IMG/VR virus record: IMGVR_UViG_3300005573_000120
Span: 1 to 52,569 of that record
Source: a virus
Lineage: Duplodnaviria > Caudoviricetes
DNA: 52,569 bases
Reading direction: 5' to 3' (one strand)
This document shows positions 6,487 to 34,150 of the stretch, in pieces (positions within the stretch are counted from its first letter, which is position 1; each line of letters opens with the position of its first letter). The position numbers were made by a program, and so were the translations under genes. The notes below the pieces were generated by a model that was not told the origin of the DNA, did no database searches, and saw nothing but the letters and a program-made list of their open reading frames with translations.

Positions 6487-7635
6487 ATGGAACTAATAAG
6501 AGCATATAAGTATAGGTTATATCCTACTAAGAAACAGCTAAGACTATTAGAATATAATTTATACTTATGTCAACAATTGTATAATTTAGCATTAGAGCAG
6601 AGGATAAGAGCTTATAGAATGAATGATAAGAAGAGCTTGAGTTATTATGACCAGTGCTATGAATTACCGAATTTTAAGAAGGAATATCCAGAATTTAATC
6701 AGGTGCATAGTCAAGTTTTATGTGATGTTTTACATAGAGTAGATAGGTCATTTCAGAACTTTTTTGATAGACTTAAAGAAAAAGGTAAGAAAGCTGGATT
6801 TCCGAGATTTAGGTCTTTGAATAGGTATAAGAGTTTCACTTATCCTCAATATATGAGTATTAGGATTGAGAATAAAAGAGTTAGATTACCTAAGATAGGA
6901 TGTATTAAAATAAAGTTAACAAGAGATATAGAAGGTAAGATTAAGACCTGTATGGTTAAGAGAGAAGTAGATAGGTGGTATATAATTTTTACTGCCATAA
7001 AAGAGGTGGAAATTAAGAAAAGGGAAAGAGATAGAGAGGTAGGTATAGATGTAGGGTTAAAGAATTTTATTACTTTAAGTAATGGAATTAAGATAGAAAA
7101 TCCGAGATATTTACAAAAATCAGAGGAGAAATTGAAGATAAGGCATAGAAAGTTGTCAAGGAAGATTAAGGGTTCAAAGAATAGGAATAAAGCTGTAATG
7201 ATATTGGCTAAAACTTATAGAAAAATAAGGGATCAGAGAGAGGATTTCTTGCATAAATTAAGCAGGAATATTGTTGATAACTATGATAAGATATATGTAG
7301 AAGATTTAAATATAGATGGTATGACTAAGAATCATAAATTATCAAAAGGTATATATGATGCTTCTTGGATTGATTTTCTTTCTAAGTTAGAATACAAAGC
7401 GGAAGAGGCTGGTGTTCCGATTAGAAAGATACCTATGTTTTGTCCGAGTTCAAAGAGATGTTCTGTATGTGGATATATAAATGTAGATTTAAAATTGGAA
7501 GATAGAGATTGGATATGTCCTGAATGTAAGAGTATGTTAGATAGGGATTTGAATGCATCGGTTAATATATTATTAGTAGGTAGAGGAGCTACCGAATCTA
7601 CGCTTGTGGAGATTGGGCAATGGTCTGGTCGGTGA
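6487..7635 (+). CDS. tnpB: IS200/IS605-family RNA-guided endonuclease TnpB (no tnpA nearby)
   Basis: AYKYRLYPT N-terminus, GFPRF, RuvC-I GIDVG, RuvC-II VEDL, CSVCG/CPEC zinc finger, RuvC-III DRDLNASVNI; D-E-D triad intact. Confidence 0.95.
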   Translation: MELIRAYKYRLYPTKKQLRLLEYNLYLCQQLYNLALEQRIRAYRMNDKKSLSYYDQCYELPNFKKEYPEFNQVHSQVLCDVLHRVDRSFQNFFDRLKEKGKKAGFPRFRSLNRYKSFTYPQYMSIRIENKRVRLPKIGCIKIKLTRDIEGKIKTCMVKREVDRWYIIFTAIKEVEIKKRERDREVGIDVGLKNFITLSNGIKIENPRYLQKSEEKLKIRHRKLSRKIKGSKNRNKAVMILAKTYRKIRDQREDFLHKLSRNIVDNYDKIYVEDLNIDGMTKNHKLSKGIYDASWIDFLSKLEYKAEEAGVPIRKIPMFCPSSKRCSVCGYINVDLKLEDRDWICPECKSMLDRDLNASVNILLVGRGATESTLVEIGQWSGR

Positions 7636-7670
7636 AGCAAGAACTCTCAAATGGGAGACTCCGAAAGGAG
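7568..7670 (+). ncRNA. Predicted TnpB omegaRNA (reRNA) scaffold and guide region
   Basis: Overlaps tnpB 3' end as known for TnpB; stems ggtag/ctacc, cttg/caag, ctctc/gggag, ctcc-gaaa-ggag; boundaries approximate. Confidence 0.65.
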
Positions 7671-8030
7671 GTAAGAAAAATGATTAAAGGAGGATTAAGA
7701 AAAATGATTAAAGGAGGATTAAGAAAAAATGGGTTAAGAAAAATGGGATGGAGCGATGAATATAGTATGGAGTTTGATTATCAATTAGAGTATGCACCTA
7801 TAATACTTGAGTTTGAAGGTGCTTATGTGTCTCCTGAGAGGGCTACTTTTGATTATCCTGGTCAGCCAGCTATGGTTGAGGATTTTAAAATTAGAATAGT
7901 TGGCATTGAAAATAATGGAGTATTTGTGAAAACTTCTATTGATGTTCCTCGGGATTTTTTTACGGATGAGGAATTAAGCATGTTTAAAGATATATTTATT
8001 GAGTATGTTGAAGACCTTAAAAAAAGATAA
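7620..8030 (+). CDS. Hypothetical acidic protein (real start probably one of the SD-preceded ATGs at 7680/7704)
   Basis: ORF track; repeated aaggagg + ATG units. Confidence 0.65.
   Translation: MVWSVKQELSNGRLRKEVRKMIKGGLRKMIKGGLRKNGLRKMGWSDEYSMEFDYQLEYAPIILEFEGAYVSPERATFDYPGQPAMVEDFKIRIVGIENNGVFVKTSIDVPRDFFTDEELSMFKDIFIEYVEDLKKR
7672..7748 (+). repeat. Tandem repeat of 24-bp unit taagaaaaatgattaaaggaggat (2 full copies plus 2 degenerate)
   Basis: Directly visible; encodes RKMIKGGL x2. Confidence 0.9.
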
Positions 8031-8043
8031 TTAGTTTTAAAAG

Positions 8044-8445
8044 GTGGATAAAGTGGACAAGGATATGAACTATTATCTTGATCTTCCTTGGGAGATTAAA
8101 CTTAAAAGAATCCCAGAAGAAAGAGGAGGTGGTTGGGTAGCTTCAATACCCGTGCTAGGTGAATATCGGTGTCTGGGTGACGGAAAAACAAAAAAAGAAG
8201 CGTTAAAAAATTTAGACCGAATGTTAAAGAATGTGATAAAAGAAAGTATTGAGGCAGGATTAGAAATTCCCGAACCGACGGAAGAGGAAGATAAGGAAGA
8301 AGAATATAGTGGTAGAATTTTGCTCAGAATCCCTAGCTTCCTTCATTTTCTTCTGGCTAAACAGGCGGAAAAAAATGGGATGAGCCTGAATAGTTATTTA
8401 ATTCATCTTCTCTTCTTGAATTATCTGATTGATAAAATTGAGTGA
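8044..8445 (+). CDS. hicB: HicB-family antitoxin (orphan)
   Basis: GGWVASIPVL...GDGKTKKEALKNL...GLEIPEP domain plus RHH YSGRILLRIPSFLH...AEKNGMSLN. Confidence 0.88.
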   Translation: MDKVDKDMNYYLDLPWEIKLKRIPEERGGGWVASIPVLGEYRCLGDGKTKKEALKNLDRMLKNVIKESIEAGLEIPEPTEEEDKEEEYSGRILLRIPSFLHFLLAKQAEKNGMSLNSYLIHLLFLNYLIDKIE

Positions 8446-8489
8446 GAATTTTTTTAGATTTAAATTTTTAGATAGATAAGGATGTAGCG

Positions 8490-9737
8490 ATGGAATTAAG
8501 TAAAATATTTCAAGGGGATGCTCTTGAAGTTTTAAAGACTTTTCCTGATGAGTGCATAGATTGTGTTATTACTTCTCCCCCTTATTGGGGGTTAAGAGAT
8601 TACAAAGTAGATGGGCAGATTGGTCAGGAATATACTTTTGATGAGTATATTAACAAGTTATGTTGTGTTTTTGATGAGGTAAAAAGAGTTTTAAAAAAGG
8701 CGGGGACTTGCTGGGTAGTTTTGGGTGATACTTATTTAGGTCATTCAGTAAGTAAAGAATGGGTAAGTGATTTAGAAAATAAAGATTTAAGAAGTAGTTG
8801 GAGGTCTGGTGGTAGAGATAGTAGTTATAGGGCTCTCAGTATTCCTAGATCAAAGAATTTACCTGATAAGTGTTTATGTTTAATTCCTTCCAGATTTGCT
8901 ATTGAGATGGTAAATCGGGGATGGATTTTGAGGAATGAAATTATTTGGTTTAAGAGAAATAAAATGCCTGAGAGTGTGAAGGATAGATTTACGGTAGATT
9001 ATGAAAAGATTTTCTTTTTTGTAAAGTCAAATAAAACTCAATTTTGGGTTAATAAAAAAACAAAAGAGATTGTTTATCAGAAGCCTAAGGGGGTGAATGG
9101 AGTAGAGGGTGTAGATTGGGAATGGGCAGATTGCCCTGTTTGTAGTGGTAATTTTAGTGATACTAAAATATTAGAAGATGCCGCAGATGATTTTTCATCG
9201 CCTCGTGCAAGAAAATATAGGAAGTGTAAGTGTGTAGAAGGTAAGGTTAAAAAATCTTTATGGGAAGGGAGGGATTATTATTTTGAACAGCAGTTTGAGA
9301 CAATGAAGCAAACATCTATTGAAAGGTTTGAGCGGGCAAATAATTCTATTAAAAGTCAAGCCTATAATTTTACTCCCGAAAAATGGAAAAAGATGGCAGA
9401 TAAGGTTTTAAAGAATAATATAAGGATAAGAAATCGTCGTTGTGTCTGGGAGGTAAATAATAAACCTTTTCATGGGATGCATTTTGCTGTATTTCCAGAA
9501 GATTTGGTAGAGATAATGATGAGGGCTGGTTGTCCTATTGATGGTATAGTTTTGGACCCGTTTATGGGGTCAGGGACGGTTGCTGTGGTAGCTAAAAGAT
9601 TAGGTAGGAATTGGTTAGGTATAGAATTAAATCCTGATTATATTAAGATAGCTTTGAAGAGGATTGAATTAGCACCAAATTATCAACCTGAATTAGATTA
9701 TTTAGAAAGTGGAAGATTAAAAAAGGAGGAAAAATAA
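8490..9737 (+). CDS. Beta-class N4-cytosine/N6-adenine DNA methyltransferase
   Basis: TSPPY catalytic motif before HFAVFP and [11 protein letters not shown] motif; Cys-containing insertion in the TRD. Confidence 0.92.
9658..9705 (+). repeat. 48-bp direct repeat, copy 2
   Basis: Matches 6425..6472. Confidence 0.9.
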
Positions 9738-9757
9738 GAAGGAGGAAGAAAAAGGAA

Positions 9758-11059
9758 TTGAAAAAAAGTAAGAAATATGGACTTGTTTGGGAAGATAAGC
9801 CAGAAGAAGTGGTTGAGATGTGTAAAGAAAAAATGCCAGTGCTGAAGGAAATTAAAGATAAGGAAATTATAACAGACCCTTCAAAGCCAATAAACATACT
9901 TATTGAAGGAGACAATTATCATGCTCTTTCTGTTCTAAATTATACCCACGCAGGAAAAATTGATGTTATTTATATTGATCCACCTTATAATACTGGCAAT
10001 AAAGACTTTATTTTTAATGACAAATATGTAGATCCTGAAGATAGTTATCGCCACTCAAAATGGCTTTCTTTTATGGAGAAAAGGTTAAAACTGGCAAAGA
10101 ATTTATTGAAAGATACAGGGGTAATTTTTATTTCAATTGATGATAATGAAGTAGCGCAGTTAAAGTTGTTAATGGATAATCCAGATTTGTTTGGAGAAAA
10201 TAATTTTATTATTAATTTGTGTTGGAAATCTAGAAATTCAATTTCTAATGATGCTATCGTTTCTACAAATCATAATTATAATTTGGTATATGCAAAAAAT
10301 ATTAACAAAATATCAATACCACAGATGTTTAGAATGGTGCCCGACGAGGAGTATAGAAAAAAATTTAGTAATCCAGACAATGATCCGAATGGTCCGTGGA
10401 AAGATATACATATAGAAATTTCTGGAGTTCATGTTAGCAAGGGACTAGTTTATGAAATTTATGATAAAAAAAATAAAATCAAATATTTTCCTGACGAAGG
10501 AAAATGTTGGCGATTTTCAAAGCCAAAATTTGAAGAATTATTAAAACAAGGAAGGATTATCTTTTACGGCAATCCCAAAAAGAAACCCCGATATAAATTC
10601 TATCTTAAAGAAGCACTAATAACACCTTCAAGTTGGTTGGATAAAGTCGGAACAACTACTGAAGGCACCAATGATTTAGTAAATATTTTTCATAATAAAG
10701 TTTTTAATAATCCTAAACCAAAAAGTTTAATAAAATATTTGATTAAGATGTATTCAAGTAGAAAAGATTTGGTAGTTTTAGATTTTATGGCTGGAACCGG
10801 CACTACTGGTCAAGCGGTTTTAGAGTTAAATAAAGAAGATGGTGGTAATAGGCAATTTATTCTTTGCACTAATAATGAGAATAATATTTGCACTAATGTT
10901 TGCTATCCGAGAATTAAAAAAGTTATTGAGGGGTATAAAAATTTGAAAGGTGAATGGGTAGAAGGTTTAGGAGGTAACTTAAAATACTTTAGAACTGATT
11001 TTGTTGATGATAAGTCAGGAGATAAGAATGAAATTAAAAAAAATGATAAAGGTTACTGA
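9758..11059 (+). CDS. Type III Mod-like N6-adenine DNA methyltransferase
   Basis: KYGLVWE, ILIEGDN, IYIDPPY, KWLSFM, PKP, LDFMAGTGTT. Confidence 0.9.
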   Translation: MKKSKKYGLVWEDKPEEVVEMCKEKMPVLKEIKDKEIITDPSKPINILIEGDNYHALSVLNYTHAGKIDVIYIDPPYNTGNKDFIFNDKYVDPEDSYRHSKWLSFMEKRLKLAKNLLKDTGVIFISIDDNEVAQLKLLMDNPDLFGENNFIINLCWKSRNSISNDAIVSTNHNYNLVYAKNINKISIPQMFRMVPDEEYRKKFSNPDNDPNGPWKDIHIEISGVHVSKGLVYEIYDKKNKIKYFPDEGKCWRFSKPKFEELLKQGRIIFYGNPKKKPRYKFYLKEALITPSSWLDKVGTTTEGTNDLVNIFHNKVFNNPKPKSLIKYLIKMYSSRKDLVVLDFMAGTGTTGQAVLELNKEDGGNRQFILCTNNENNICTNVCYPRIKKVIEGYKNLKGEWVEGLGGNLKYFRTDFVDDKSGDKNEIKKNDKGY

Positions 11060-13004
11060 TTTAAAACCAATAAATAACCTTAAGTTGATATTTAGAGAAA
11101 TTAGAGATTATTTTGCTGGTAACATTACAGGTATTACAAGAGATGAAAAAATTGCGCAGAATATAATGCGGCTTTTATTTTGTAAGATTTATGATGAAAA
11201 AAACAGTTACGGCGTAACCGATTTTTCTAATCGTCCCGAAGATAATTATGAAATTTTACAGCAAAGAATAAATAATTTGTTTGAAAATGTTAAGAAAAAA
11301 TATTCGGATATTTTTGAACAGAATGAAAAAATTGAGATAAAACCAGAAGAACTCTCGTTTATAGTTTCAAAATTAGAAGATTATTCAATTCTAAATGCTG
11401 ATAGAGATGTTATTGGGGATGCTTTTGAAGAATTAATAAGCACCTCTTTTAGAGGTGGAGAGGGGCAATTTTTTACTCCGAGAAATGTTGTTCAAATGAT
11501 GATTAATGTTTTATCTCCTCAGGGAGGAGAGCGAATTATTGACCCTGCTTGTGGTAGTGGCGGATTTCTTGTATATACATTAAAATATTTTATTTCCTAT
11601 AATGTGAAAAATTTTTACCTTGCTGGAATTGATAAAGACGCCTTCTTGTCTAAAATAGCAAAAATTTATCTCTCGCTACTTGGGAATGATGAATTTGATG
11701 TTTTTTGCGAGAATAGTTTAGAAGTGCCCGAAAAATGGAGTGATGATACTAAGAAAAAAATTAAACTTGGCACTTTTGATATGGTTCTCACAAATCCACC
11801 ATTTGGATCAAAAATACCAGTTATTGGAGAAAAATTACTAAACCAGTATCAACTTGGTCATAAATGGAAAAATATCAATAATAAGTGGGTGCATACAAAT
11901 AAATTACTTGATAAACAGCCTCCACAGATTTTGTTTATTGAAAGATGTTTGCAATTACTTCGTAACGAGGGGAGACTAGGGATTGTTTTGCCTGAGGGAA
12001 TTTTTGGCAATCCCTCTGATAGATATATTTGGGAGTATATTTCAAGTGTAGCATCAATTATTGGTGTCGTAAGTTTATCTCAAGAAACTTTTCAACCGAG
12101 CACTCATACAAAGACAAGTGTATTATTTTTGAAAAAAACTACTGAGAAACCAAAATCAATTTTTATGGCTATAGCAAATAGTGTTGGTCACAATAAGAAC
12201 GGAAAACCGATATACAAAATAGATAAATCTAGTAATAAAAAAGTATTAGATGATGATCTTCCTATAATTGCTAAAAGGTTTAATTCGCGTAAAAGCAATG
12301 ATAAGACTGTGGTTGATCATTTGGGATTTAATATCTCTTATAATGAATTAAATGACCATATTTTTATACCTGAATATTACAACCCTGAGATTGCCGAAGA
12401 AATAGACTCGCTTAAAAAAAGTGGAAAGTTTTTGTTATTATCTATTGGTGAATTAATAGATAAAGGAATTTTACAAGTCAGGAGAGGGAATGAAATAGGC
12501 TCGCAATTTTATGGCTCTGGAGAAATACCATTTGTGAGGACAAGTGATATTGTTAATTGGGAAATAAAATTTGATCCAGTAAAAGCTGTATCTGAAGATG
12601 TTTATAATAAATATAAAAAAATACAGGATATTAAAGAGAATGATATTTTATTTGTTAATGATGGCACATTTCTTATTGGGAGGACTGCTATAGTTACAAA
12701 ATTAGATTTAAAAATAGTTATTCAGAGTCACATAAAGAAAATTAGAGTATTAAACAATGAATTTATTAATCCATTTTATTTGTTTTATCTTTTGAATAGT
12801 AAAATTGTAAGAAAGCAAATAGATTCTAAAACATTTGTGCAAGCAACTATTTCAACTCTTGGTAATAGATTGAAAGAAATTATATTACCAATAAGCAAGG
12901 ATCAGAATGAAATTGAAAAAATTATAAGCGAGGTTAAGTCTATTATTGATGGGAAGGCTGATTTAAGAGCCAAAATAGTTAAAATTGTAGATGCAAGTAT
13001 TTAA
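11028..13004 (+). CDS. Gamma-class N6-adenine methyltransferase with fused C-terminal specificity (TRD/HsdS-like) region
   Basis: GQFFTPR, DPACGSGG, TNPPF, VLPEG; start moved to ATG 11028 behind aggaga SD; no nuclease domain visible. Confidence 0.88.
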   Translation: MKLKKMIKVTDLKPINNLKLIFREIRDYFAGNITGITRDEKIAQNIMRLLFCKIYDEKNSYGVTDFSNRPEDNYEILQQRINNLFENVKKKYSDIFEQNEKIEIKPEELSFIVSKLEDYSILNADRDVIGDAFEELISTSFRGGEGQFFTPRNVVQMMINVLSPQGGERIIDPACGSGGFLVYTLKYFISYNVKNFYLAGIDKDAFLSKIAKIYLSLLGNDEFDVFCENSLEVPEKWSDDTKKKIKLGTFDMVLTNPPFGSKIPVIGEKLLNQYQLGHKWKNINNKWVHTNKLLDKQPPQILFIERCLQLLRNEGRLGIVLPEGIFGNPSDRYIWEYISSVASIIGVVSLSQETFQPSTHTKTSVLFLKKTTEKPKSIFMAIANSVGHNKNGKPIYKIDKSSNKKVLDDDLPIIAKRFNSRKSNDKTVVDHLGFNISYNELNDHIFIPEYYNPEIAEEIDSLKKSGKFLLLSIGELIDKGILQVRRGNEIGSQFYGSGEIPFVRTSDIVNWEIKFDPVKAVSEDVYNKYKKIQDIKENDILFVNDGTFLIGRTAIVTKLDLKIVIQSHIKKIRVLNNEFINPFYLFYLLNSKIVRKQIDSKTFVQATISTLGNRLKEIILPISKDQNEIEKIISEVKSIIDGKADLRAKIVKIVDASI

Positions 13005-13026
13005 ATAAAGTTGATGAAAGGAGAAA

Positions 13027-13110
13027 ATGATGGAAAATTTCAAAAAGGAGCACCCAGATTTAACTGAAGAGGAGCTTACTGATTGTACCAAAAATTTTAT
13101 ATTTAGCTAA
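13027..13110 (+). CDS. Possible 27-aa peptide or gene remnant
   Basis: aaggag SD then MMENFKKEHPDLTEEELTDCTKNFIFS*. Confidence 0.35.
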   Translation: MMENFKKEHPDLTEEELTDCTKNFIFS

Positions 13111-13142
13111 TTCTAAAAAAGAAAGGAGGAAGAAGAGTTAAA

Positions 13143-13394
13143 ATGGATAAATATGAATTAGGTATTCTTAGAAAATTTAAAAAATACGCACCTATTGAAA
13201 ACGAAGAAGAAGAAAGAGTTTTAGAAAAGTATTCTCTTATCGGCTGGGTTTACTGGGGTATTGATCCTGATGATAATTACCAACCCTACGCCCAACTTAC
13301 ACAGAAGGCACTTTCATTTATTCGCGTAAAAGAAATTCTAGAGAGTCGCGTAAGGACTTTCTGGCATAAATTAATTAATTCTCCTGCACTCTAA
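13143..13394 (+). CDS. Hypothetical protein
   Basis: ORF track; SD aaggagga upstream. Confidence 0.65.
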   Translation: MDKYELGILRKFKKYAPIENEEEERVLEKYSLIGWVYWGIDPDDNYQPYAQLTQKALSFIRVKEILESRVRTFWHKLINSPAL

Positions 13395-13395
13395 A

Positions 13396-13444
13396 TTTTA
13401 TAAGAACTATGCCTTGTGGGGGTTTTATAAGAACTATGCCTTGT
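13396..13444 (+). repeat. 22-bp near-tandem duplication ttttataagaactatgccttgt
   Basis: Copies at 13396..13417 and 13423..13444. Confidence 0.9.
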
Positions 13445-14590: not shown

Positions 14591-14615
14591 ATAATGCTAA
14601 AAAGGAATTAGAAAA

Positions 14616-15920: not shown

Positions 15921-15950
15921 TAAAAATAAATAAAAAAGAAGGTAAGGAGA

Positions 15951-16949: not shown

Positions 16950-17014
16950 TGCTAAAATGGGTTAATTTATGATATTTTTTAATGTTTTTGATAAATTAGG
17001 ATTATAGTTATAAT

Positions 17015-19100: not shown

Positions 19101-19107
19101 GAATAAA

Positions 19108-22821: not shown

Positions 22822-22838
22822 TTAAAAACAAGGGGTAA

Positions 22839-24062: not shown

Positions 24063-24099
24063 TTGGAGAAAGATAAAAAAATAAGGAGGCAAGGGAAAG

Positions 24100-24609: not shown

Positions 24610-24646
24610 GGTATAAAGATTTAGAGAATAAGGAGGCGAGGGAAAA

Positions 24647-25167: not shown

Positions 25168-25548
25168 ATGAAGATTAAGATTAAGTATAATTCTATTAAA
25201 CCTGTGGATAATTTTGGTTTAGAGTTTGGGTGTCAAGATAACAGGAATATTCGTGCTTGTGCTCTTCTTAGCCTTAAAAATTATATTGTAGATAGCTTTA
25301 AGGATAAGGCAATTGCTATTCCAGATAATTTTAATGATTTTGAAGTATGGGTTAATAATATTAACAAAGTTATTGAAAGGAGTAAAGATTTATATGAATT
25401 TATTGAATGGATGGGGGATGTTTATGGAGTTGATAGTGCAAAAATTATAGATAATCCTTCTTCTCCGAATGTAGACCAGTTTGCTAAAAAGGTTGTCAAA
25501 AAAGTGAGGCATAAAGGTTTAAAGAATAAGGAGATAAGGAAAAGATGA
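25168..25548 (+). CDS. Internally deleted member of the acidic paralogue family
   Basis: ALLSLKNYI...IPDNFNDFEVWV joined directly to the C-terminal part; start taken at ATG 25168 (ORF track 25138). Confidence 0.6.
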   Translation: MKIKIKYNSIKPVDNFGLEFGCQDNRNIRACALLSLKNYIVDSFKDKAIAIPDNFNDFEVWVNNINKVIERSKDLYEFIEWMGDVYGVDSAKIIDNPSSPNVDQFAKKVVKKVRHKGLKNKEIRKR

Positions 25549-27344
25549 AGCGTAAAGGTTTAAAATTGAAGGGTTCTTCAAGGAGTAAGGGTTCTTCTCT
25601 TGAAGATTTTGATTCTTCTATTTTGAATTTAAGGTCTTCAAGGAGTTTTATAGCTGAGGAGGTATCTAATTTTTATAGGGATATGTATGGTTTAGATGAA
25701 GAAGGTAAGGGTTCTGGTATGAAAAAGGAGGCACAGTTTTTTGGTGGGGTAGGTCCTGTTGGTAGCGGGGCTCCAGTTACGATAACTGTTCCTCAGCCTT
25801 ATATTCCAGAGTTAGCTACTCCTGATAGGTTATTTTTTCCGACTAAGCCTAAGGAGGCTATGAAGTATTGGCGTTATTTTTATGCTTTGGATCCTGTTTG
25901 TGGGAATGTATTGGATATGTATGGTGAGGTGACAAGTTCTGATATAACTTTATCTGGTTTTGAGATAGCTGGGGATGATTTGAGTGCTGAGATAAGGGAT
26001 ACTTGCTATGAGGCGTTAAAGGATACGAATGCAGTAGGTCAATTTAAATGGATGGTGATAGGGTATTTGGTGGATGGTGAGGTTATTCCTCATTTAGTTT
26101 GGGATAATGATTTGCATAGATGGGTTTATTTAGGTTTTCAGGATCCGATGAATGTGAATGTGGTGGATGTTCCTTTTGTTCGTGGTCTGCCTTATTTAGA
26201 GTTAGAGATTAGTGATTCTATTCGTAATATATTTAGGAATCCTGACCCAATTTATGAAAGGTTTAGGAAGCAAGTTCCTAATGAGTTTTTGGATTTGATT
26301 TTGCAGGGTAGGAATATACCCTTGAAGACGGATGAGAATGTGACATTTATTCCTAGAAGGCTGACGCCTTATGATATTAGGGGTATATCTATTTTTGCTC
26401 GTATTTGGCGTGTTTTGATTTATGAGGATGCAATTATGAATGCATCCATTCAGACGGCGAGGAGGCATGCAGCACCAGTAAAGGTGGTTAAATTAGGTGA
26501 TCCGTCTAGGGGTTGGATTCCAGGTCCAGAGCAGGAGGATAAGATAAAGAGATTGCTTGCAATAGCTGAGACTGATCCTCATGCGTGGTTGGTGACTCAT
26601 TTTGGTGTTTCTTTTGAGGCTTGGGGGACGACAGATAGGGTGATGAGTATATCTCGTGAATGGGATACGATAGAGAGGATAAAATTGATAGCTTTGGGTG
26701 TAAGTAGAGCTTTCTTGCACGGAGAAGTCACATATTCGTCGGCTGAGAAGGGTTTGCAGATATTTTTGAGTAGATTAAAGGGGTTGAGGACTTTTTTTGA
26801 GCAGGTTTGGTGGTATCCAAGGTTTTTTGGGATAATGTCTCAGAAGAATGAATGGGTTGCTCCTACGAGGGCAGAGCTTTCGCATAATGTAAGGGTTAGG
26901 AGGAGTAAGAAGGAATTATTAGAGGATGGTCGTTATATTATTCCTCGTATAGTTTGGGAGGAGAATTTAGAGCCTCAGGATAGATCGGAGTTGATTCGGA
27001 TTTATACTGATTTAGTTGAGAGGCTTGGTATAAAGATAAGTCGTGGGACTGTTTTAGCTAATTTAGGGTTGGATTTTGAAGAGGAGGAGAAGAATTGGAG
27101 GGAGGAGCAGAAGGTGATAGAGGATTTGGATAAGGAGTATGGTAAGAAAGAGACTGTTCCAGGGCAATCTCCTATGGGAGTTCCTATGGGAGTTCCTATG
27201 GATTTGGGTATTCCAGAGGTAAGTCCTGCTGGTGTTGGAGTTCCAATGGGTGGGGAGGTTCCTGCTGAAAGTCCTGAAACAGGTATAGGTGAAGAAATGG
27301 GTGAGGTAAGCGAAGAAAGTTTGGAAGGTATTGGAAATAAGTAA
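25545..27344 (+). CDS. Portal protein
   Basis: Size and position between TerL and protease; RYFYALDP, RGISIF, LGVSRAFL-type portal features; acidic Pro/Gly tail with PMGV repeats. Confidence 0.8.
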   Translation: MKRKGLKLKGSSRSKGSSLEDFDSSILNLRSSRSFIAEEVSNFYRDMYGLDEEGKGSGMKKEAQFFGGVGPVGSGAPVTITVPQPYIPELATPDRLFFPTKPKEAMKYWRYFYALDPVCGNVLDMYGEVTSSDITLSGFEIAGDDLSAEIRDTCYEALKDTNAVGQFKWMVIGYLVDGEVIPHLVWDNDLHRWVYLGFQDPMNVNVVDVPFVRGLPYLELEISDSIRNIFRNPDPIYERFRKQVPNEFLDLILQGRNIPLKTDENVTFIPRRLTPYDIRGISIFARIWRVLIYEDAIMNASIQTARRHAAPVKVVKLGDPSRGWIPGPEQEDKIKRLLAIAETDPHAWLVTHFGVSFEAWGTTDRVMSISREWDTIERIKLIALGVSRAFLHGEVTYSSAEKGLQIFLSRLKGLRTFFEQVWWYPRFFGIMSQKNEWVAPTRAELSHNVRVRRSKKELLEDGRYIIPRIVWEENLEPQDRSELIRIYTDLVERLGIKISRGTVLANLGLDFEEEEKNWREEQKVIEDLDKEYGKKETVPGQSPMGVPMGVPMDLGIPEVSPAGVGVPMGGEVPAESPETGIGEEMGEVSEESLEGIGNK

Positions 27345-27369
27345 AAAATAGAGGAGGGTAAGAGATAAA

Positions 27370-28596
27370 ATGAAAAGAAATTTTAAAGTAGCAAGGTTAA
27401 TAGAGGATGTGAGGGATTTGTCTTCTATTGCTTCTACTGATGTTATGGGTAGGCTTGATATATCTAAGGCTATAGAGTTGGTAGCCGATAGGTATAGTAT
27501 ATCTAAAAATCCTGATGATTATTGTTATTTAGTGGTGGTGGCTTTATGTGCTGATAAGCCTAATGATAATGGGGATGCCTTTCCTTTGGCGGAGTTAGAG
27601 AGGTTTGAGCCTCGTTATGGTTGTAAGGTTTATCAGACTTTTGTATTGAAGCCTCATTTTATAGAGCATAAGCAGGATGGTGATGTTTATGGATTTGTAT
27701 TGGATGCTCATTTAGAGAAGCCAAAGGATGATAATGCTTATGTGGAGTTGGTATTGGCGGTGGATACGAAGAAGGATCCTGTTTATGGTGGTTTAGTTAA
27801 GGCGGGTAAGGTGAATGCCTTTTCAATGGGTTGTTCTGTGGATTATACGGTTTGTAATGTATGTGGTCATAAGGCTTATGTTGAGGCTGAATTTTGTGAG
27901 CATATAAAGAGTGGTAAGATGAAGACCTTTAAGGTAGCTGGTTCTAATGAGGAGAAGTTGGCTTTTGAATGGTTATATGGTATATGTTTTGATGAGATTT
28001 CTGCAGTTTCTGATCCAGCGGAGGAAAAGGCATTGTTAGAGGAAAAATTAGCAAGTAAGGTAGAGAATATAAAAGTTAGATTAGGGGTATTGAAACAGAA
28101 GTATAGGGAAGATACAGGTCGTAAGGAGTGGTGTTTGGTATCAAAGGATGGTGATAAGGTTTTGAAGTGGTTTGGTCCTGAAAAACCTTCTGAGGAGGAG
28201 GTGGCTAAAGAGGAGAGAAGGGTGCAGTATTTTAAGCATAAGGGTGGTAAGAGGGTATTATCTCAATCAAGTCAAGACAAGGAGAAGGGATGGTTAATAA
28301 ATTTGTCTAAAGATATATCGGAAGGGAAGGTTTCCGATGAGACTAAGGCGCAAGAGTGGTTTCGTGAGAGATATAAGAGGGAGCCTGATCCTGGTGAGAT
28401 GGAGAATATGAGGTCTTTGTTTAGCCGTAAAAGGATTAGGCAGAGATGGTATAAATTATTGAAAAAAGGCAATAATTTAGTAGAGATAGGGTGTAGGGAG
28501 ATAGAAGATGATACAGATAGTATTATAACAGGATGTAGAGATATAGAGGATAAGGCAGATGATATTGTGATAGGAGTAAAAAATTTAGTAGAATAG
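27370..28596 (+). CDS. Prohead (capsid maturation) protease with C-terminal extension
   Basis: NDNGDAF, HFIEH, FSMG, CNVCG..CEH, EISAV; follows portal. Confidence 0.75.
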   Translation: MKRNFKVARLIEDVRDLSSIASTDVMGRLDISKAIELVADRYSISKNPDDYCYLVVVALCADKPNDNGDAFPLAELERFEPRYGCKVYQTFVLKPHFIEHKQDGDVYGFVLDAHLEKPKDDNAYVELVLAVDTKKDPVYGGLVKAGKVNAFSMGCSVDYTVCNVCGHKAYVEAEFCEHIKSGKMKTFKVAGSNEEKLAFEWLYGICFDEISAVSDPAEEKALLEEKLASKVENIKVRLGVLKQKYREDTGRKEWCLVSKDGDKVLKWFGPEKPSEEEVAKEERRVQYFKHKGGKRVLSQSSQDKEKGWLINLSKDISEGKVSDETKAQEWFRERYKREPDPGEMENMRSLFSRKRIRQRWYKLLKKGNNLVEIGCREIEDDTDSIITGCRDIEDKADDIVIGVKNLVE

Positions 28597-28625
28597 TGAT
28601 TTTTTTAAGGTTTTTGTTTAAATTA

Positions 28626-28673
28626 TGTTATGATATATTGCAACAGGGACTAAGTAATTGAAGATCTTTGAAA
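28626..28673 (+). promoter_or_regulatory. Extended -10 (TGtTATGAT) followed by boxA-like gatctttgaaa
   Basis: Intergenic; boxA-like word recurs at 34063 as gctctttgaaa. Confidence 0.45.
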
Positions 28674-28675
28674 TT

Positions 28676-28770
28676 TATTATTAGTAGGTAGAGGAGATAC
28701 CGAATTTACACTTGTGGAGACTATAAATTGGTCAATGAAGCAAGAACTCTCAAAAAAGGGAGATTCCAAA
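28676..28770 (+). ncRNA. Stand-alone copy of omegaRNA-like scaffold
   Basis: tattattagtaggtagaggag.taccgaat.tac.cttgtggaga...ggtc..tgaagcaagaactctcaaa..gggaga.tcc matches 7568..7662 with no tnpB ORF attached. Confidence 0.6.
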
Positions 28771-28794
28771 AGAAAGAGGAAGGAATAAGAAAAA

Positions 28795-29331
28795 ATGAGA
28801 AATCCTGCTAAAATTAAGGTTAGTCCTAAGCTTGGTGATCCTTATGGTATTTTTAGTTTTATAGTGGAATGTGATGCGGTGGGAAGGGAGCTTTATGAGG
28901 GTGCTTTTGTATATCTTCAGGATTATATTAAAGGTAGATTTGAGGATGAGGGATTAGATACAAGTGTTATACCAGAAGATATTGATGATTTTGATTTATG
29001 GGTTAGAAGTATTTGTGGCACTGAGACGGTTGGTGCATTTATTGTTACTTATGAGGATTCTGCTTTAGGTGAATTTCCAGAGTTTTATTATGTTTCTCAT
29101 ACATGGTATTCTGCGTATTTGGGTAGGAATTTAGATAAAAAAACGGAGAAAATTATTGAGGAGATTCTTGATAAGTCTCTTACTTTAGAGGATGTTATTA
29201 AAGGATTAGAACATGTTTACGGATATGGTAGTGCAAAAATTATATATGATTTTACTTATAAAAATGCGGATTATTTTGCCGAAGATATGTTTAAACATAT
29301 AGTTAGATATTTAGAATATAATAAAAAATGA
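28795..29331 (+). CDS. Acidic ~170-aa paralogue family protein
   Basis: AFVYLQDYI...GLDTSVIPEDIDDFDLWV. Confidence 0.8.
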   Translation: MRNPAKIKVSPKLGDPYGIFSFIVECDAVGRELYEGAFVYLQDYIKGRFEDEGLDTSVIPEDIDDFDLWVRSICGTETVGAFIVTYEDSALGEFPEFYYVSHTWYSAYLGRNLDKKTEKIIEEILDKSLTLEDVIKGLEHVYGYGSAKIIYDFTYKNADYFAEDMFKHIVRYLEYNKK

Positions 29332-29346
29332 AGAGATAAGGGAAAA

Positions 29347-29880
29347 ATGAGAGACAGCGTTTCAATTATAATTATTCCTTCATCTGAACTTGGTTTAGAT
29401 GAATTTGAATTATTAACTGAAATAATGGGGTCGGATAAGGTTTTTGAAGAAGCTTATGAAGAAGCTTATGAAGTTCTGAAGGATTATATTGAAGATAATC
29501 TTATTGAAAGAGGATTAGATACGACTATTGTGCCAGATGATCTAAATGATTTTAAGGTATGGATTCAAAGTATCTCTGATTGGGTTGATGATTATATTGA
29601 GTATTACGCTGGTTTTGCTGTGTTTGAAGCTGAAAAAAATTTAATGCCAATAGGCTATAAGATTGTAGAAGGGCAAGTAGATAGAAAAACAGAGGAGGCT
29701 ATTGAAGAGATTTTTCGGAAGAATGTATATTTTGAAGAAGTTCTTGCAGGGTTAAAAGAGTTTTTTGGGCTTAACATTACAATAGATAAATATGATTATT
29801 GTTATAACGAATCATATGTTACTGCTGTCTTGATTCTTGAAGATGTGATTAGATATTTAGAGGATCGTGAAAAAAAATAA
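29347..29880 (+). CDS. Acidic ~170-aa paralogue family protein
   Basis: LIERGLDTTIVPDDLNDFKVW. Confidence 0.8.
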   Translation: MRDSVSIIIIPSSELGLDEFELLTEIMGSDKVFEEAYEEAYEVLKDYIEDNLIERGLDTTIVPDDLNDFKVWIQSISDWVDDYIEYYAGFAVFEAEKNLMPIGYKIVEGQVDRKTEEAIEEIFRKNVYFEEVLAGLKEFFGLNITIDKYDYCYNESYVTAVLILEDVIRYLEDREKK

Positions 29881-29894
29881 GGAGGTAATGAAGG

Positions 29895-30434
29895 ATGAGA
29901 TTCTTTACTACAATTACAATTATTCCTTTTTGGCATGAATTTAACTTAAGAGAATTTGAATTATTATTTGAGGTATCGGGGTCAGATAGGCTTTTTGAAG
30001 AAGCTTATAAAGATCTTCAGGATTTTATTAAAAGTAGTCTTATTGAAAGAGGATTAGATACGACTATTGTGCCAGATGATCTAAATGAATTTAAGGTATG
30101 GGTTGAGGGCATTTCTGATTGGATCGTTGATTATATTGAGTATTATACTGATTATGCTGTATTTGATACCCAAAAAGATTTTATGCCATTAGGCCTTGAG
30201 ATTTCAAAAGGGCAAGTAGATAAAAAAACAAAGGAAGCTATTAAAGAGATTTTTCGGAAGAATGTATATTTGGAAGAAGTTGTTGCAGGATTAAAAGAGT
30301 ATTTTGGACCTAATTCTACTATAAAAAAAGATCGCTATGATTATAATAGGATAGAAGCATGGCGAAGTGCTGATGAGATTGTTAAAGATGTGATTAACCT
30401 TTTTTATATAACAGAGTATAGAAAAAAAGAATAA
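29895..30434 (+). CDS. Acidic ~170-aa paralogue family protein (recent duplicate of 29347)
   Basis: LIERGLDTTIVPDDLNEFKVW; long near-identical nucleotide blocks shared with 29347. Confidence 0.8.
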   Translation: MRFFTTITIIPFWHEFNLREFELLFEVSGSDRLFEEAYKDLQDFIKSSLIERGLDTTIVPDDLNEFKVWVEGISDWIVDYIEYYTDYAVFDTQKDFMPLGLEISKGQVDKKTKEAIKEIFRKNVYLEEVVAGLKEYFGPNSTIKKDRYDYNRIEAWRSADEIVKDVINLFYITEYRKKE

Positions 30435-30446
30435 GGAGGTAAGAGA

Positions 30447-32291
30447 ATGAAAAAAAGAGAATATTTTATTAAAGCAGGTTCAGGAAAATTTAGTTATAAT
30501 GATTGGAAGGTAGTTATAGAAGACAGAGGGAAATACAAGATAGCTAAATTAGGTGATGGTAAAGAATTTCCGTTTAGGAAAATTATAACAAGTTCTATTT
30601 CTGAGCAGGATTTTGCGGGTTCTGTTTTGAAGGATTTAGTAGGTTCGGGTTTGAAAAATACTATTAAAAAGTATGGTTTTACTCCTCGTTTTAAGTCTAT
30701 AGTTGAAGATGGGGTTGTGGATAAGAGACCTGGTGTTTCTCCTCATAAGGATAGGGTAACTAATGAGGGGATTGTAGATAAGAGGGATTTTAAGGTTAAT
30801 GATGTTGATAGGTCTGTTATAGATGAAGGGGTTTTGGATAAGAGGAGTAGATTAAATAGAAGTCTTGATAGAAGGATAGCGCTTCGGAGATTAGAAAGGA
30901 GATTAGCTTTGAAGAGGTTAAAGGAGAAATTGGCTTCAAGAGGATTGAAAAAGGATGATAAAGAAGGTATTGATAGAAGGAGATTGAGAAGAGGGTTAGG
31001 TGTGAGTTCTAATTCTGGTATAGGTAGAATTAGACCTTTAGGGTTGAGAAAAGTAGATAGAATAGGTTCTGATAAAAAATTGGGTTCAGATAGAATTAAG
31101 AGGTTATTAAGGCGTGCAAGGATAAGGAGATTGCTGAGGGATAGAGGTTTGAGTGGTGAAAGGCTTTCTAAACTTAAGGCTATTAGAGAGGTTTCTAAAA
31201 AGAAAAATTTAAAGAAGAAACCTTTGGATTTAGAGAGGAAGGGATTGAGTCTTGATAATAAGGTTTCTGTTAATAAGCCTAAATGGGTAAATTATATAAA
31301 GGTTGGTTCTTTGATTAAGGAATTGAAGAGGGTTTATAGTGAGTATCATTTTAAGGATCGGGATAATAAGGAAAAATTAGCTAATCATAGTATTATATCT
31401 TTGTTTGGTGATTCTTCTATAAGGAAGGCGCAAGAGGGTGTTGAGACTTTGCCTGATGCTCAATTAAAGGAGAATTTTGATGTCCCAGGGCTTGTGGAGG
31501 AGGTAGTTAATTTTTATATTGAGGATGAGGAGATGGGCTCTTCTGAAGCAGTTGAACAGATTGTAGATTCGTTTGTATCTAAGGAAGCTCCAGAGGAGGT
31601 AAAGGAAGAGATTTCTGAATTTGTTGAAGATATAGCTAAAGGGGTTGAAAAAGAAACCAAAGAAACTACGGAGGAAAAGGAGGTTGAAATTGAAACCAAA
31701 GAAGATGAGGATAAGGGTTCGGAAGGGATTGAAAAGGAGATTAAAGAGGTTGAAGATGGAGTTAAGGAGATTGAGGAAGAGGTTACTACTCCGACTGCGG
31801 AAGAGGTTGGAATTGATGAGGTAGAGGTAGTTTCAAAGAGGACTGCAGATTTAGCTTTAAATAAGTTTAAGAAGGTTTTGAGGATTTCTGCAATTCGTCA
31901 GGCTTTGAATATAGAGCCTTCTGGATTGTATAAGATGAAGATAAATTTAATGGATGAGATGTTGAAGAAGGGATTTAGAAAGTCGGATGCAACAGAGGTT
32001 ATTGAAAAGGCGTTTAGGAATTCTTTAGGTGAGGATGTAGTTGGTGAGTTAATTAAGTCTGCTAGTGATTTATTTGATATGGATGATAAATCTATTGGAT
32101 TGATTGAGAAGGATTTAGAAAAGTTAAGTCCAGTAGATATTTTGAGTATTGTTTCAGCTTCAGATGAAAAGGTAGAAGATAAAGATGTAAAACTTTTTGC
32201 AAAGACTGGTTCAGGTTTATTTGAAGATGACGAGTTTGAGAAGGTGTTAAGAAATTCTTTGCCAAATTTTGGTATTGAGAGGAAAAGATAA
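30447..32291 (+). CDS. Scaffold/core-like head protein with very basic then very acidic tracts
   Basis: Position before decoration and capsid genes; R/K-rich middle, E-rich later region. Confidence 0.55.
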   Translation: MKKREYFIKAGSGKFSYNDWKVVIEDRGKYKIAKLGDGKEFPFRKIITSSISEQDFAGSVLKDLVGSGLKNTIKKYGFTPRFKSIVEDGVVDKRPGVSPHKDRVTNEGIVDKRDFKVNDVDRSVIDEGVLDKRSRLNRSLDRRIALRRLERRLALKRLKEKLASRGLKKDDKEGIDRRRLRRGLGVSSNSGIGRIRPLGLRKVDRIGSDKKLGSDRIKRLLRRARIRRLLRDRGLSGERLSKLKAIREVSKKKNLKKKPLDLERKGLSLDNKVSVNKPKWVNYIKVGSLIKELKRVYSEYHFKDRDNKEKLANHSIISLFGDSSIRKAQEGVETLPDAQLKENFDVPGLVEEVVNFYIEDEEMGSSEAVEQIVDSFVSKEAPEEVKEEISEFVEDIAKGVEKETKETTEEKEVEIETKEDEDKGSEGIEKEIKEVEDGVKEIEEEVTTPTAEEVGIDEVEVVSKRTADLALNKFKKVLRISAIRQALNIEPSGLYKMKINLMDEMLKKGFRKSDATEVIEKAFRNSLGEDVVGELIKSASDLFDMDDKSIGLIEKDLEKLSPVDILSIVSASDEKVEDKDVKLFAKTGSGLFEDDEFEKVLRNSLPNFGIERKR

Positions 32292-32308
32292 AATAAGGAG
32301 GTAAGAAG

Positions 32309-32995
32309 ATGTTAGACAGAACAAGGACTATTGCTGAACGAAGATTAGGGGTAGATCCAGTTGATCCTAATACTTCGTTTGAAGAAGGTGCATTATTGCA
32401 TTGGAGTTCTAATGGTTGGAAGGTTTCAGATGATGCAGATGGAACTGTGATTAGAGGGATTGCAGGTATAAATAAACAGAGCTCAGTTAATGGAGTTGTA
32501 ATTAAGGAGAGTATAACTTTTGGAGATGATGATACTGCTACTTTAAATCATGCTAATTTAGTTGAAGGTTCTGAAATGGTGACTTCTGTAGATGAAAGCA
32601 CTGCATATAGTAAAACCACCGATTATACTATAAATTATACTAATGGTATAGTTACTCGTGTAAGTGGTGGTGGTATATCTGCTGGGGCGACTGTTTTGAT
32701 AAGTTATTCTTATCAGAGGACTTTGCAGGAGATTGAGGAAGAGATTGGGATGCCGATTACGAATAGTTTAGATGAGACTTTTGGTTCCAATAAGGTTGTA
32801 GTTTTTCAGGGGAGATGTAGGATTGCGACTACTTGTTATGATACTTCTAAGGCTTATGCTGTAAATGATGCTTTGTATGATAATGGAGATGGTTTATTGA
32901 CTTCAGATAGCACTGGTAGTAAGGTTCAGGTTGGTAGGGTTTTAAAAGTTCCAGAAGCTAGTGATCCATATTTAATTGCGGATTTATCATTATAA
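32309..32995 (+). CDS. Head decoration/stabilising protein
   Basis: Immediately upstream of MCP; YDTSKAYAVNDALY...GLLT...VGRV pattern; DYTINYTNG beta insertion. Confidence 0.65.
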   Translation: MLDRTRTIAERRLGVDPVDPNTSFEEGALLHWSSNGWKVSDDADGTVIRGIAGINKQSSVNGVVIKESITFGDDDTATLNHANLVEGSEMVTSVDESTAYSKTTDYTINYTNGIVTRVSGGGISAGATVLISYSYQRTLQEIEEEIGMPITNSLDETFGSNKVVVFQGRCRIATTCYDTSKAYAVNDALYDNGDGLLTSDSTGSKVQVGRVLKVPEASDPYLIADLSL

Positions 32996-33013
32996 AAAAG
33001 GAGGTAGGATAAG

Positions 33014-34057
33014 ATGAGAAATCCATATAAAGAATATGCTGAAAAAAAGACTGGAAAGATTTGGGAGGAATTGGATAAAGATTTTGATAGAAAAGGTGAA
33101 TTAAATGCTTGGGATAAGAAAGATGCAGGGACGAAGATAGCTAGTATTTTAGATAAAGTAGCAGGGACGAGACCTCAGCTAATAAAAGAGAAGGCTTTAG
33201 ATGAATCAACTAAGCGTCGTATTTTAGCTTCAATTTCTGCTAATCCTGAAAAGGGTATGAGTGTTGTGGCTCAGGTGATGGGTGATGCAGTTTATAAGAT
33301 TGTGGATTATGCTGGATGGGCAAGAAAAATTTTCAATGTAAAAACTATAGCTCAGGGAGATGTTTTTAGGGTTCCAAAAGATGTTGATGTAGCTGGTTGG
33401 GTGGTAGCAGGTGATGGTCAGACTTTAGTTAGTCAGGTAAGAACTAAATATGTATTTCCTGGTGAGTTTAAGATTACAGCATTTACAGAGATTGATATTC
33501 AGGATGTGGTTCAGGCGAATTGGGATATTTTTGCTCGTGGAATTGATAGGTCTGCTCAACAGATAATGAGGAATGAGGATGTTCGTGCAGTAGCACTATT
33601 AACTAATGCTTCTCGGACTGTGAATGATACTGTTACCTATGCTACTTTGTCTTTGGGTGTATTTGAAGATATTAGGTATCAGGTAGAGAGATGGAGATTG
33701 ACAGTGGATAAATTTATTATTTCTCGTAGTGAACTTTCAGATATAGTTAAGACTATGAGTGGTCAGGTGGATTTTGTTACTCAGCGTGAATTGATTTTAG
33801 CTGGTTATATTGGTAATGTATTGAATGCTCAGATTATTACTAGTGCTGGTATAGGGGTTGAGGAGGTTGTTCCTGCTGGTGTAGTATTTGCGGTGACTGA
33901 GGGGAACTATTTAGGACAGCTTGGTGAGAGGTTGGCTTTGGTAAGTGAGGAGTATAGCGCAGTGGTTAGGAATGAGTTGAAGAGAGGTGTCGCTCAGTAT
34001 GAGATTATTGGTATTGGTATTGGTAATAGCAGAGCGGTTGCGATGGGGACTAAGTGA
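33014..34057 (+). CDS. Major capsid protein (HK97 fold predicted)
   Basis: 347 aa in canonical position; YAGWARKIF...I.RNED...YEIIGIGIGNSRAVA pattern. Confidence 0.85.
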   Translation: MRNPYKEYAEKKTGKIWEELDKDFDRKGELNAWDKKDAGTKIASILDKVAGTRPQLIKEKALDESTKRRILASISANPEKGMSVVAQVMGDAVYKIVDYAGWARKIFNVKTIAQGDVFRVPKDVDVAGWVVAGDGQTLVSQVRTKYVFPGEFKITAFTEIDIQDVVQANWDIFARGIDRSAQQIMRNEDVRAVALLTNASRTVNDTVTYATLSLGVFEDIRYQVERWRLTVDKFIISRSELSDIVKTMSGQVDFVTQRELILAGYIGNVLNAQIITSAGIGVEEVVPAGVVFAVTEGNYLGQLGERLALVSEEYSAVVRNELKRGVAQYEIIGIGIGNSRAVAMGTK

Positions 34058-34150
34058 TTAAAGCTCTTTGAAATTTATTATTAGTAGGTAGGGGAGCTAC
34101 CGAATTTTTGACCTGTTGATATTATATCAGCAGAGGTGGGTGAAATTCCC
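34046..34150 (+). ncRNA. Structured leader: boxA-like word, omegaRNA 5' stem, then two different hairpins
   Basis: 34046..34107 is 57/62 identical to 28646..28707; then ctgttgata/tatcagcag stem and gggtgaaattccc. Confidence 0.5.

Follow-up and report, generated by a model that had tools for sequence, protein, structure and literature searches.

A tnpB gene with an overlapping RNA scaffold and three further copies of it

The window analysed here, a stretch of 52,569 bases, is the complete IMG/VR virus record IMGVR_UViG_3300005573_000120 and is estimated to represent 31% of a phage genome. Of its 60 open reading frames (ORFs) of at least 80 amino acids (aa), nearly all lie on the + strand. It carries a tnpB gene encoding an RNA-guided nuclease, a scaffold for an omegaRNA that overlaps the 3' end of this gene (the cis copy), and three further sequences related to the scaffold, termed copies B, C and D. 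The original prediction, made from the letters alone, had regarded these loci as four omegaRNA-like units of a candidate domesticated system, either a multi-guide arsenal or TnpB-binding or processing sites that control late mRNAs. The features concerned are as follows.

6487-7635, + strand: tnpB, gene for an ISDra2-like RNA-guided nuclease of 382 aa (Pfam domains, alignment and PDB match)
7565-7667, + strand: scaffold of the cis omegaRNA (covariance model R1, 67 bits over 7575-7665; covariation in 15 sequences)
7668-7687, + strand: predicted guide of the cis omegaRNA (placed where the homology of the cis copy, a sister contig termed L008, C and B ends at the tail)
351-477, + strand: copy B, a decayed tnpB 3' end (BLAST, alignment and covariance model)
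28683-28772, + strand: copy C, a complete scaffold without TnpB (covariance model, 62 bits over 28683-28769; BLAST)
34072-34105, + strand: copy D, a remnant of 34 nucleotides (nt) (BLAST, 94%; covariance model, 14.7 bits)

The protein encoded by tnpB has the architecture of the TnpB family, with a helix-turn-helix part, a RuvC nuclease part (OrfB_IS605) and a zinc-ribbon/TNB part (Pfam HTH_OrfB_IS605, OrfB_IS605 and Cas12f1-like_TNB, with E-values of 3.5e-09, 4e-28 and 5.1e-20, respectively). Residues 5-362 match the ISDra2 TnpB chains 8h1j, 8bf8 and 8exa with an E-value of 2.5e-63 in a comparison with PDB sequences, and 7,505 of the 7,999 candidates scored were homologues at E <=0.001. The two closest homologues are 74% and 73% (P0003) identical, and all others are at most 53% identical. 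The intact D-E-D triad of the original prediction was confirmed: D188, E272 and D354 are invariant across an alignment of 22 TnpB homologues, lie within the motifs GIDVG, VEDLN and DRDLNAS, and align with the same motifs in the top PDB match. In protein architecture and in the triad, the phage protein is like the ISDra2 TnpB of Deinococcus radiodurans. The resident TnpB looks active, and RNA-guided DNA cleavage is predicted for it.

No second full tnpB gene or TnpB ORF is present elsewhere in the record. The lack of a tnpA gene, also foreseen from the letters, holds for the 52.6 kb of the window, where neither a Y1 transposase (PF01797) nor a serine recombinase (PF00239) is present. PF01797 is equally absent from G001, a record of a related phage (contigs L094-L097; 24,682 bases, 14% complete). 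The TnpA that would define an IS200/IS605 transposon (Y1, or serine for IS607) was thus found neither in the window nor, as regards PF01797, in G001.

Covariation supports an omegaRNA at the 3' end of tnpB

To model the RNA, the genome scan provided 80 loci with TnpBs 38-50% identical to the phage protein, from bacteria and archaea, and the 3' regions were cut out for 63 of them. An alignment of 15 sequences (A5) was composed of the cis copy, one sister copy and the 13 relatives that share sequence motifs with the phage element, the other 50 of the 63 being omitted. Because these 13 relatives were picked by sequence motifs, the omegaRNA model is valid for a sub-clade only. RNAalifold returned for this alignment a hairpin 1, a long-range helix P2, a hairpin 2 and a hairpin 3, with 19 of the 21 pairs compensatory. 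In the cis scaffold, which shares 71 nt with the 3' end of tnpB, the order is hairpin 1 (7579-7593), P2 (CTTGT/GCAAG), hairpin 2 and hairpin 3, ending at 7657; the tail then occupies 7658-7667 and reads ACTCCGAAAG. P2 illustrates the compensatory changes, being CTTGT/GCAAG in the cis copy and in C, CTTAC/GTAAG in L008 and CTTGG/CCAAG in contig L094 of the related phage.

A pseudoknot completes the structure: the loop of hairpin 1, GGAG, pairs with CUCC in the tail behind hairpin 3, and relatives have GAAC/GUUC at these places. When it is included, 94.5% of the pair cells of the alignment are standard, compared to 35-49% with slid partners, and both-sided changes occur in 21 of 24 pairs; the observed values were reached by none of 500 shuffles. 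The pseudoknot helix taken alone is 93.3% paired, with two of its four pairs compensatory. An RNA scaffold with conserved structure overlaps the 3' end of the gene, and the cis locus is, as judged by covariation, a genuine omegaRNA. On the modelled structure, a working scaffold would require hairpin 1 plus the tail. The phage RNA resembles the ISDra2 omegaRNA (right-end element RNA, reRNA) in that the scaffold overlaps the tnpB 3' end, stops at the right end of the element and has its pseudoknot beside the guide. The tail of the phage scaffolds is of the ACUCC type, compared to a GUUCAC type in 12 of the 13 aligned genomic relatives, and the loop of hairpin 1 is changed to match.

A covariance model search, one of the checks that had been proposed with the original prediction, was run across the entire window with filters off, using the model built from the A5 sequences. 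The cis copy and C scored high (67 bits, E 3.3e-16 and 62 bits, E 7.2e-15), whereas D and B scored low (14.7 bits, E 0.035 and 10 bits, E 0.63). A further 15 rows were weaker or at noise level. Matches at 24180-24274 (19 bits) and 27707-27801 (14.4 bits) were taken as noise, lying inside ORFs with many mispaired positions, and matches at 18402-18516 (8-9.5 bits) were likewise dismissed.

One of the three extra copies is structurally complete

When positions 7540-7670 were compared with the record by BLAST, C was recovered at 28672-28772 (80% identity, E 1.6e-22), B in two parts at 373-405 (97%, E 7.8e-11) and 410-477 (79%, E 4.2e-11), and D at 34072-34105 (94%, E 5e-10). The three copies are well beyond chance similarity. 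As the record is a metagenome assembly, and as Logan unitigs break at repeats, the copies might be assembly artefacts or fortuitous resemblances. We regard this as extremely improbable: the E-values are as low as 1.6e-22, related records have the same kind of copies, and an independent contig of the same phage, L006, reproduces window positions 1-7606 at 99.8% identity, including B and the tnpB junction.

Copy B retains coding sequence for the zinc finger of tnpB (351-385 matches 7480-7513 at 94%) and has two internal deletions, one of which took out hairpin 1; it therefore lacks a partner for the pseudoknot, and one P2 pair is broken. Its counterpart in L006 scores 17 bits. Copy C retains P2, hairpin 2, hairpin 3, the tail and the pseudoknot. 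Its hairpin 1 is shortened from 5 to 4 base pairs (bp) with one pair broken, and it has an A where 13 of the 15 family sequences have a conserved G. It is 89.6% identical to the element of L008, compared to 80% for the resident cis scaffold. Copy D is made of hairpin 1 (34087-34101) and about 10 nt on each side, without P2, hairpin 2, hairpin 3 or tail, and its score is low because hairpin 1 alone survives. This hairpin is followed by GAATTTTTGA, which contains a T-run, so that a weak site resembling an intrinsic terminator (34087-34110) follows the major head gene. The GGTGAA found behind the hairpin was dropped as a possible scaffold remnant, similar native sequence being present there in the related phage.

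From their predicted structures, B and D would be unable to make a scaffold and C would still be able to do so. The four positions of the original prediction therefore stand, as does one structurally complete extra scaffold with a possible use in trans, which follows from the completeness of C. Their equivalence does not, since B and D are without parts that the covarying structure needs. The statement that stems are retained despite substitutions holds in part: compensatory changes appear only in comparison with sister elements, and within the window the changes are one-sided or shorten a stem. It is true of every copy that its 3' continuation is different and that it lies directly 5' of a gene. 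Description of the copies as a CRISPR-like array was rejected, since those in the window are 7-21 kb apart and a tandem pair in G001 has no spacer.

Related phages carry the element in other gene gaps

The sister contig L008 and the record G001 allow occupancy to be compared, and two gaps that are empty in the window are filled in these relatives.

16950-17014, + strand: gap empty in the window, with a tnpB element in L008 (no covariance model match in the gap)
36765-36777, + strand: gap empty in the window, with a full-length tnpB in L094 of G001 (L094 junction)

Positions 1-379 of L008 are the last third of tnpB and match window 7286-7668 at 93.75%; joined behind this piece, positions 389-1777 match 17021-18404, that is, the homologue of ORF 17015-18361, at 91.5%. 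G001 is collinear with the window over ~18.5-37 kb, and its head protein is 72% identical to that of the window. It carries a full tnpB (74% aa identity) behind the homologue of ORF 35913: L094 5579-5995 matches window 36345-36761 (62% at the aa level), and tnpB comes immediately after. A mini-tnpB is present in G001 as well; it joins the first 46 codons directly to the final ~160 nt of the gene, leaving an ORF of 106 aa and a complete scaffold of 61.9 bits. Finally, two tandem scaffolds are found at a contig end of G001, before the homologue of ORF 18324 (L096 10047-10220, minus strand). They are arranged head to tail, and the stretch separating them is just 13 nt of tnpB 3' sequence; one scores 63.7 bits and the other is cut by the end of the contig.

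In total, eight element sites were counted in three related phage lineages, and the sites differ, as expected of a mobile element. In the collinear stretch, the C and D sites of the window and the two sites that G001 has there are never occupied in both phages. The original prediction of a domesticated system was not supported by this comparison, as the element and its derivatives lie in different gene gaps of related phages and none is shared where the phages can be compared. The intact nuclease and the lack of site conservation leave domestication unsupported.

Searches for further relatives gave little. No match and no near relative was found in the phage-record collection by megablast with window 6000-9000. 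Viral contigs searched with the TnpB protein and with a 28-nt pattern returned nothing, and a shorter pattern found only G001. Logan contigs of two hot-spring DNA runs, compared with window 1-20000, showed neither a filled nor an empty allele, the unitigs breaking at repeats.

The readable junctions share no left end upstream of the ATG, and several copies are bordered by duplicated flanks

The left junction can be read for three elements, the window tnpB and the full-length and mini genes of G001. These junctions differ up to the ATG and share no left end upstream of it, in line with the original prediction; a left end could still lie within the first codons. A search for left ends by likeness to the right-end hairpin had no power, as it succeeded in one of 13 relatives only. 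The target-adjacent motif (TAM) of ISDra2 is TTGAT, and this motif is absent from the three left junctions. On the right side, the likeness of the copies (cis, L008, C and B) stops after the tail ACTCCG-WRAG. As a separate observation, the start codons of tnpB encoding K-Y-R-L-Y can fold as a 5-bp hairpin, GTAYA/TRTAY (window 6505-6525; L094 6055-6075 and 10477-10497), in which one pair at synonymous sites is changed on both sides between copies (TAC..CTG vs TAT..TTA). This hairpin could be a left-end or RNA signal inside the tnpB ORF.

Several copies are bordered by duplicated flanking sequence, listed here for the window.

6425-6478, + strand: copy of the 3' end of a methyltransferase gene, just 5' of the tnpB ATG (self-BLAST; compare 9664-9712)
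28640-28682, + strand: ectopic last ~7 codons of the major head gene with the native downstream spacer, left flank of C (self-match)
33014-34057: major head protein gene

In self-BLAST, 6425-6501 matches 9658-9739 at 84% (E 3.4e-18), with ~50 nt containing a single mismatch. The copied 3' end of the methyltransferase gene (8490-9737) occupies a different reading frame where ORF 5844-6458 ends, and the two 3' ends bracket a 3.2-kb block composed of tnpB, ORF 7680-8030, a HicB-like ORF and the methyltransferase gene. At copy C, 28646-28690 matches 34046-34090 at 93% over 45 nt; the spacer seen beside C also follows the head gene in L094, and the pseudo-codons read IATGTK*, compared to VAMGTK* in the real head gene. 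Because of this ectopic head-gene end, seen at 28640-28690 with its original at 34040-34090, the block 28640-34105 is bordered by a direct repeat of ~80 nt. The mini-tnpB of G001 is bordered by a 63-nt direct repeat, ~92% identical (L094 10344-10406 and 10763-10825). Three copies are thus bordered by duplicated flanks of 50, about 80 and 63 nt.

The predicted guides coincide with the starts of neighbouring genes

The 16-20 nt after the tail, which would be the guide, are the ribosome-binding site (RBS) and start of the next gene. For the cis copy, the predicted guide contains the RBS and the beginning of the ORF that follows (ATG at 7680), and it is at the same time the first unit of a 24-nt tandem repeat. 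Tandem Repeats Finder placed this repeat at 7664-7728 (period 24, 2.8 copies), beginning inside the tail of the cis scaffold. The 24-nt unit, followed over window 7664-7747, comprises the end of the tail, an RBS and an ATG (AAAGGAGGATTAAGAAAAATGATT), and the first unit differs by a 2-nt indel.

This arrangement bears on the proposal that the copies influence phage gene expression in cis, whether as sites where TnpB binds or processes polycistronic late mRNAs, or through reuse as a terminator (D) or as leaders that carry an RBS (cis, B and C). Every copy does end 0-25 nt before a start codon, with an RBS inside the predicted guide, and TnpB is reported to cleave its own mRNA on the 5' flank of the scaffold (PMC10278001, in the part available). 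Moreover, hairpin 1 of D has gained a T-run and is terminator-like after the major head gene, where the related phage has a G+C-rich hairpin. However, gene gaps in this phage are short, so that any intergenic insertion would fall close to a start codon; relatives do not have the sites in common, and the hairpin of D has only 5 bp. We consider a role of this kind very improbable.

The 16-nt segments of seven copies were used to search ~82 kb (the window, G001, L008 and that part of L006 which lies to the left of the window) with up to two mismatches, and two off-locus matches were found in this sequence of the phage and its relatives. The guide of C matches window position 91 with two mismatches, and shuffled guides average 0.74 hits. 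The guide of the G001 mini-gene has a one-mismatch match 419 nt upstream, within its own 63-nt flank repeat, a match that exists because the right repeat copy begins exactly at the right end of the element. No off-locus target with up to two mismatches exceeded the expectation from shuffled guides in these ~82 kb, and the multi-guide arsenal of the original prediction is not borne out there.

Solo scaffolds differ in how far their changes preserve pairing

Among the five high-scoring phage scaffolds, 92.8% of the pair cells are standard and three pairs are changed on both sides. For a test of neutrality, the observed number of substitutions was placed at random on the structure and the broken pairs were counted.

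C compared with L008: 7 differences, 1 broken pair, P=0.49
C compared with cis: 12 differences, 1 broken pair, P=0.18
G001 mini compared with its full-length neighbour: 13 differences, 0 broken pairs (simulated mean 3.3), P=0.014

Copy C looks neutral, showing no departure from neutral change.

These results are the place to weigh whether C, like the solo scaffolds of G001, might be a working gene for a trans-acting omegaRNA loaded by the single resident TnpB. TnpB with the RNA of C would then cut the uninterrupted C site in co-infecting relatives, or another matching target, and one nuclease gene would hold or drive several loci, as proposed for the bacterial palindrome-associated transposable elements (PATEs). 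C scores 62 bits, compared to 67 for the cis copy, with all helices and the pseudoknot present. Its scaffold, measured from the C/D junction to the tail, is ~100 nt long, near the 106 nt of the processed scaffold of an Alicyclobacillus TnpB (PMC10278001, available part). Complete solo scaffolds recur in G001, where the mini-gene differs from its full-length neighbour at 13 positions without a broken pair (P=0.014), and PATEs often encode omegaRNAs that need TnpB in trans, according to the accessible portion of 10.1101/2023.03.14.532601. However, the changes of C show no excess of structure-preserving ones, a hairpin-1 pair is broken, the conserved G is replaced, and the copy shares just 80% identity with the resident scaffold. 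G001 lacks an element at the C site, and the guide of C, a purine-rich RBS, gave no off-locus match beyond chance expectation. On balance, a trans-acting C is possible but doubtful.

Surroundings of the element

The remaining contents of the window include a further head gene.

27370-28596: head maturation protease

The window also codes for three N6/N4 DNA methyltransferases, a HicB-like protein and an RRXRR/HNH protein. The HicB-family antitoxin-like ORF is at 8044-8445 (Pfam E 2e-08), and no HicA-like partner was recognised among the neighbours scanned. A scan with Rfam at the gathering cut-off gave 0 matches and a tRNA scan also gave 0. A paralogous family of ~175-aa genes has at least seven members, at window 20929-25159 and 28795-30434 and at L006 3005-3644, which are 67-82% identical to one another in nucleotides. 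In G001, two stretches of ~1.3 kb without window counterpart split the homologue of window ORF 25545-27344; they may be inserted elements.

G001 4563-5926 and 6252-7558, reverse strand: the two extra stretches (compared with window 26444-26771)

The sequence of the window is present in two public hot-spring DNA runs, and no RNA run is listed for 27300-35100. In run X1, a low-depth contig (4.08) links window position 130 to position 7699 with three letters between them, both positions being RBS-like; this could reflect a strain variant or an artefact of the assembly graph.

A probable mobile cassette family and its relics

We judge it probable that the window contains a single live cassette along with three relics, all from a mobile tnpB-omegaRNA family, and not a domesticated multi-guide set. 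The family would be composed of tnpB-only cassettes of the IS200/IS605 type, from the ISDra2 clade, that colonise gene gaps in large hot-spring phages, each cassette extending from the tnpB ATG to the 10-nt tail behind hairpin 3. Its transcript would yield both TnpB and an omegaRNA made of the 3' ~100 nt and the next ~16-20 nt of flank. By analogy with ISDra2 and with elements of Geobacillus, this omegaRNA would steer TnpB to the site where the cassette is inserted, in its uninterrupted form. Copy B would be a tnpB 3' end trimmed by two internal deletions, D a 34-nt stump left behind the head gene, and C a 5'-truncated copy duplicated together with ~45 nt of the left flank of D. The copies would then record the turnover of a selfish element by insertion, deletion and flank duplication, with no fixed set of guides owned by the phage.

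Several observations weigh against this interpretation. Copy C is whole (pseudoknot, P2, hairpins 2 and 3), its use is possible given its place on the sense strand of a late operon, and complete TnpB-less scaffolds recur in G001 (the mini-gene at 61.9 bits, the tandem at 63.7 bits). The test on the G001 mini-gene hints at selection on solo scaffolds; its pair-preserving change may also predate its deletion. The 5' edges of two independent solo scaffolds (C and D in the window; the tandem in G001) fall within ~3 nt of each other, ~13 nt before hairpin 1, and random deletion does not predict such near coincidence. No tnpA and no common left end were found, so the interpretation does not account for how the cassettes reach new sites, and the label of insertion sequence is incomplete. 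Finally, genome coverage is just 31% for the window and 14% for G001.

A last proposal would account for some of these points. The cassettes, having neither left end nor transposase, would act as free-standing homing endonuclease genes that retarget themselves, the new flank becoming the guide; the complete TnpB-less scaffolds (C and the mini and tandem copies of G001) would be trans-guides that let one TnpB hold or drive several loci and exclude co-infecting relatives; and break repair would have left its footprints in the flank duplications and in the 5' edge common to the solo scaffolds. We hold this combination to be unlikely. The elements are like the free-standing homing endonuclease genes of T-even phages (seg and mob) in that a nuclease gene sits between conserved phage genes, related phages are occupied at different gaps and there are footprints of flank co-transfer. 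Unlike seg and mob, target recognition would here be by RNA, and specificity would follow the new flank automatically. A class of 'transposon non-restorative homing' is listed, with co-infecting phages as +/- transposon homing targets, in the available part of PMC13565253.

Comparison with known systems helps to place the cassettes. Unlike ISDra2, the element resides in a phage, without an adjacent tnpA and without a left end common to its copies. As far as the accessible text of 10.1101/2023.03.14.532601 goes, a close parallel is with the non-autonomous, tnpB-only IS605-family elements and PATEs of Geobacillus stearothermophilus, where tnpB occurs without tnpA in many copies with different flanks, and where gene-less derivatives keep the omegaRNA and would need TnpB in trans. 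The Geobacillus elements described there keep both their left and their right ends conserved and rely for movement on a TnpA that is encoded elsewhere. The phage copies, in contrast, show no common left end, C bearing a flank piece of another locus instead, and several of its copies are bordered by duplicated flanks (50, about 80 and 63 nt). C was rejected as a PATE, which has both transposon ends and no ORF, since a head-gene flank fragment occupies the left-end position; the G001 mini-gene keeps both tnpB ends but is not gene-less, as the 106-aa ORF remains.

The phage TnpB is also like the TldR proteins, transposase-less relatives of TnpB whose guide RNA may be apart from the gene. TldRs, as presented in the available part of PMC10705468, have lost the nuclease residues, occupy fixed loci and have guides that match promoters. 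Assignment to this domesticated type was rejected, as the phage TnpB has an intact D-E-D triad and variable sites, and no matching target was found in ~82 kb. Another phage-borne tnpB is that of cyanophage A-1(L), which is absent from close relatives and transcribed during infection according to the part of 10.64898/2026.02.14.705889 at hand. Unlike the present gene, it is identical to insertion sequence copies of the host, and that part of the report describes no extra scaffold copies.

If the preferred interpretation of one live cassette and three relics is true, these phages provide a clean natural series of a TnpB element, from an intact copy through a mini-gene and a solo scaffold to a stump, together with an omegaRNA model supported by covariation and including a switch in the pseudoknot. 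If the homing proposal were true, TnpB would have spread without TnpA between co-infecting phages, and the cassettes would show how a single nuclease comes to work with several guides that are encoded separately. Such a step is commonly assumed on the way from transposon nucleases to multi-guide systems such as type V CRISPR, for which an origin of arrays by omegaRNA duplication is proposed in the available part of PMC10691335.

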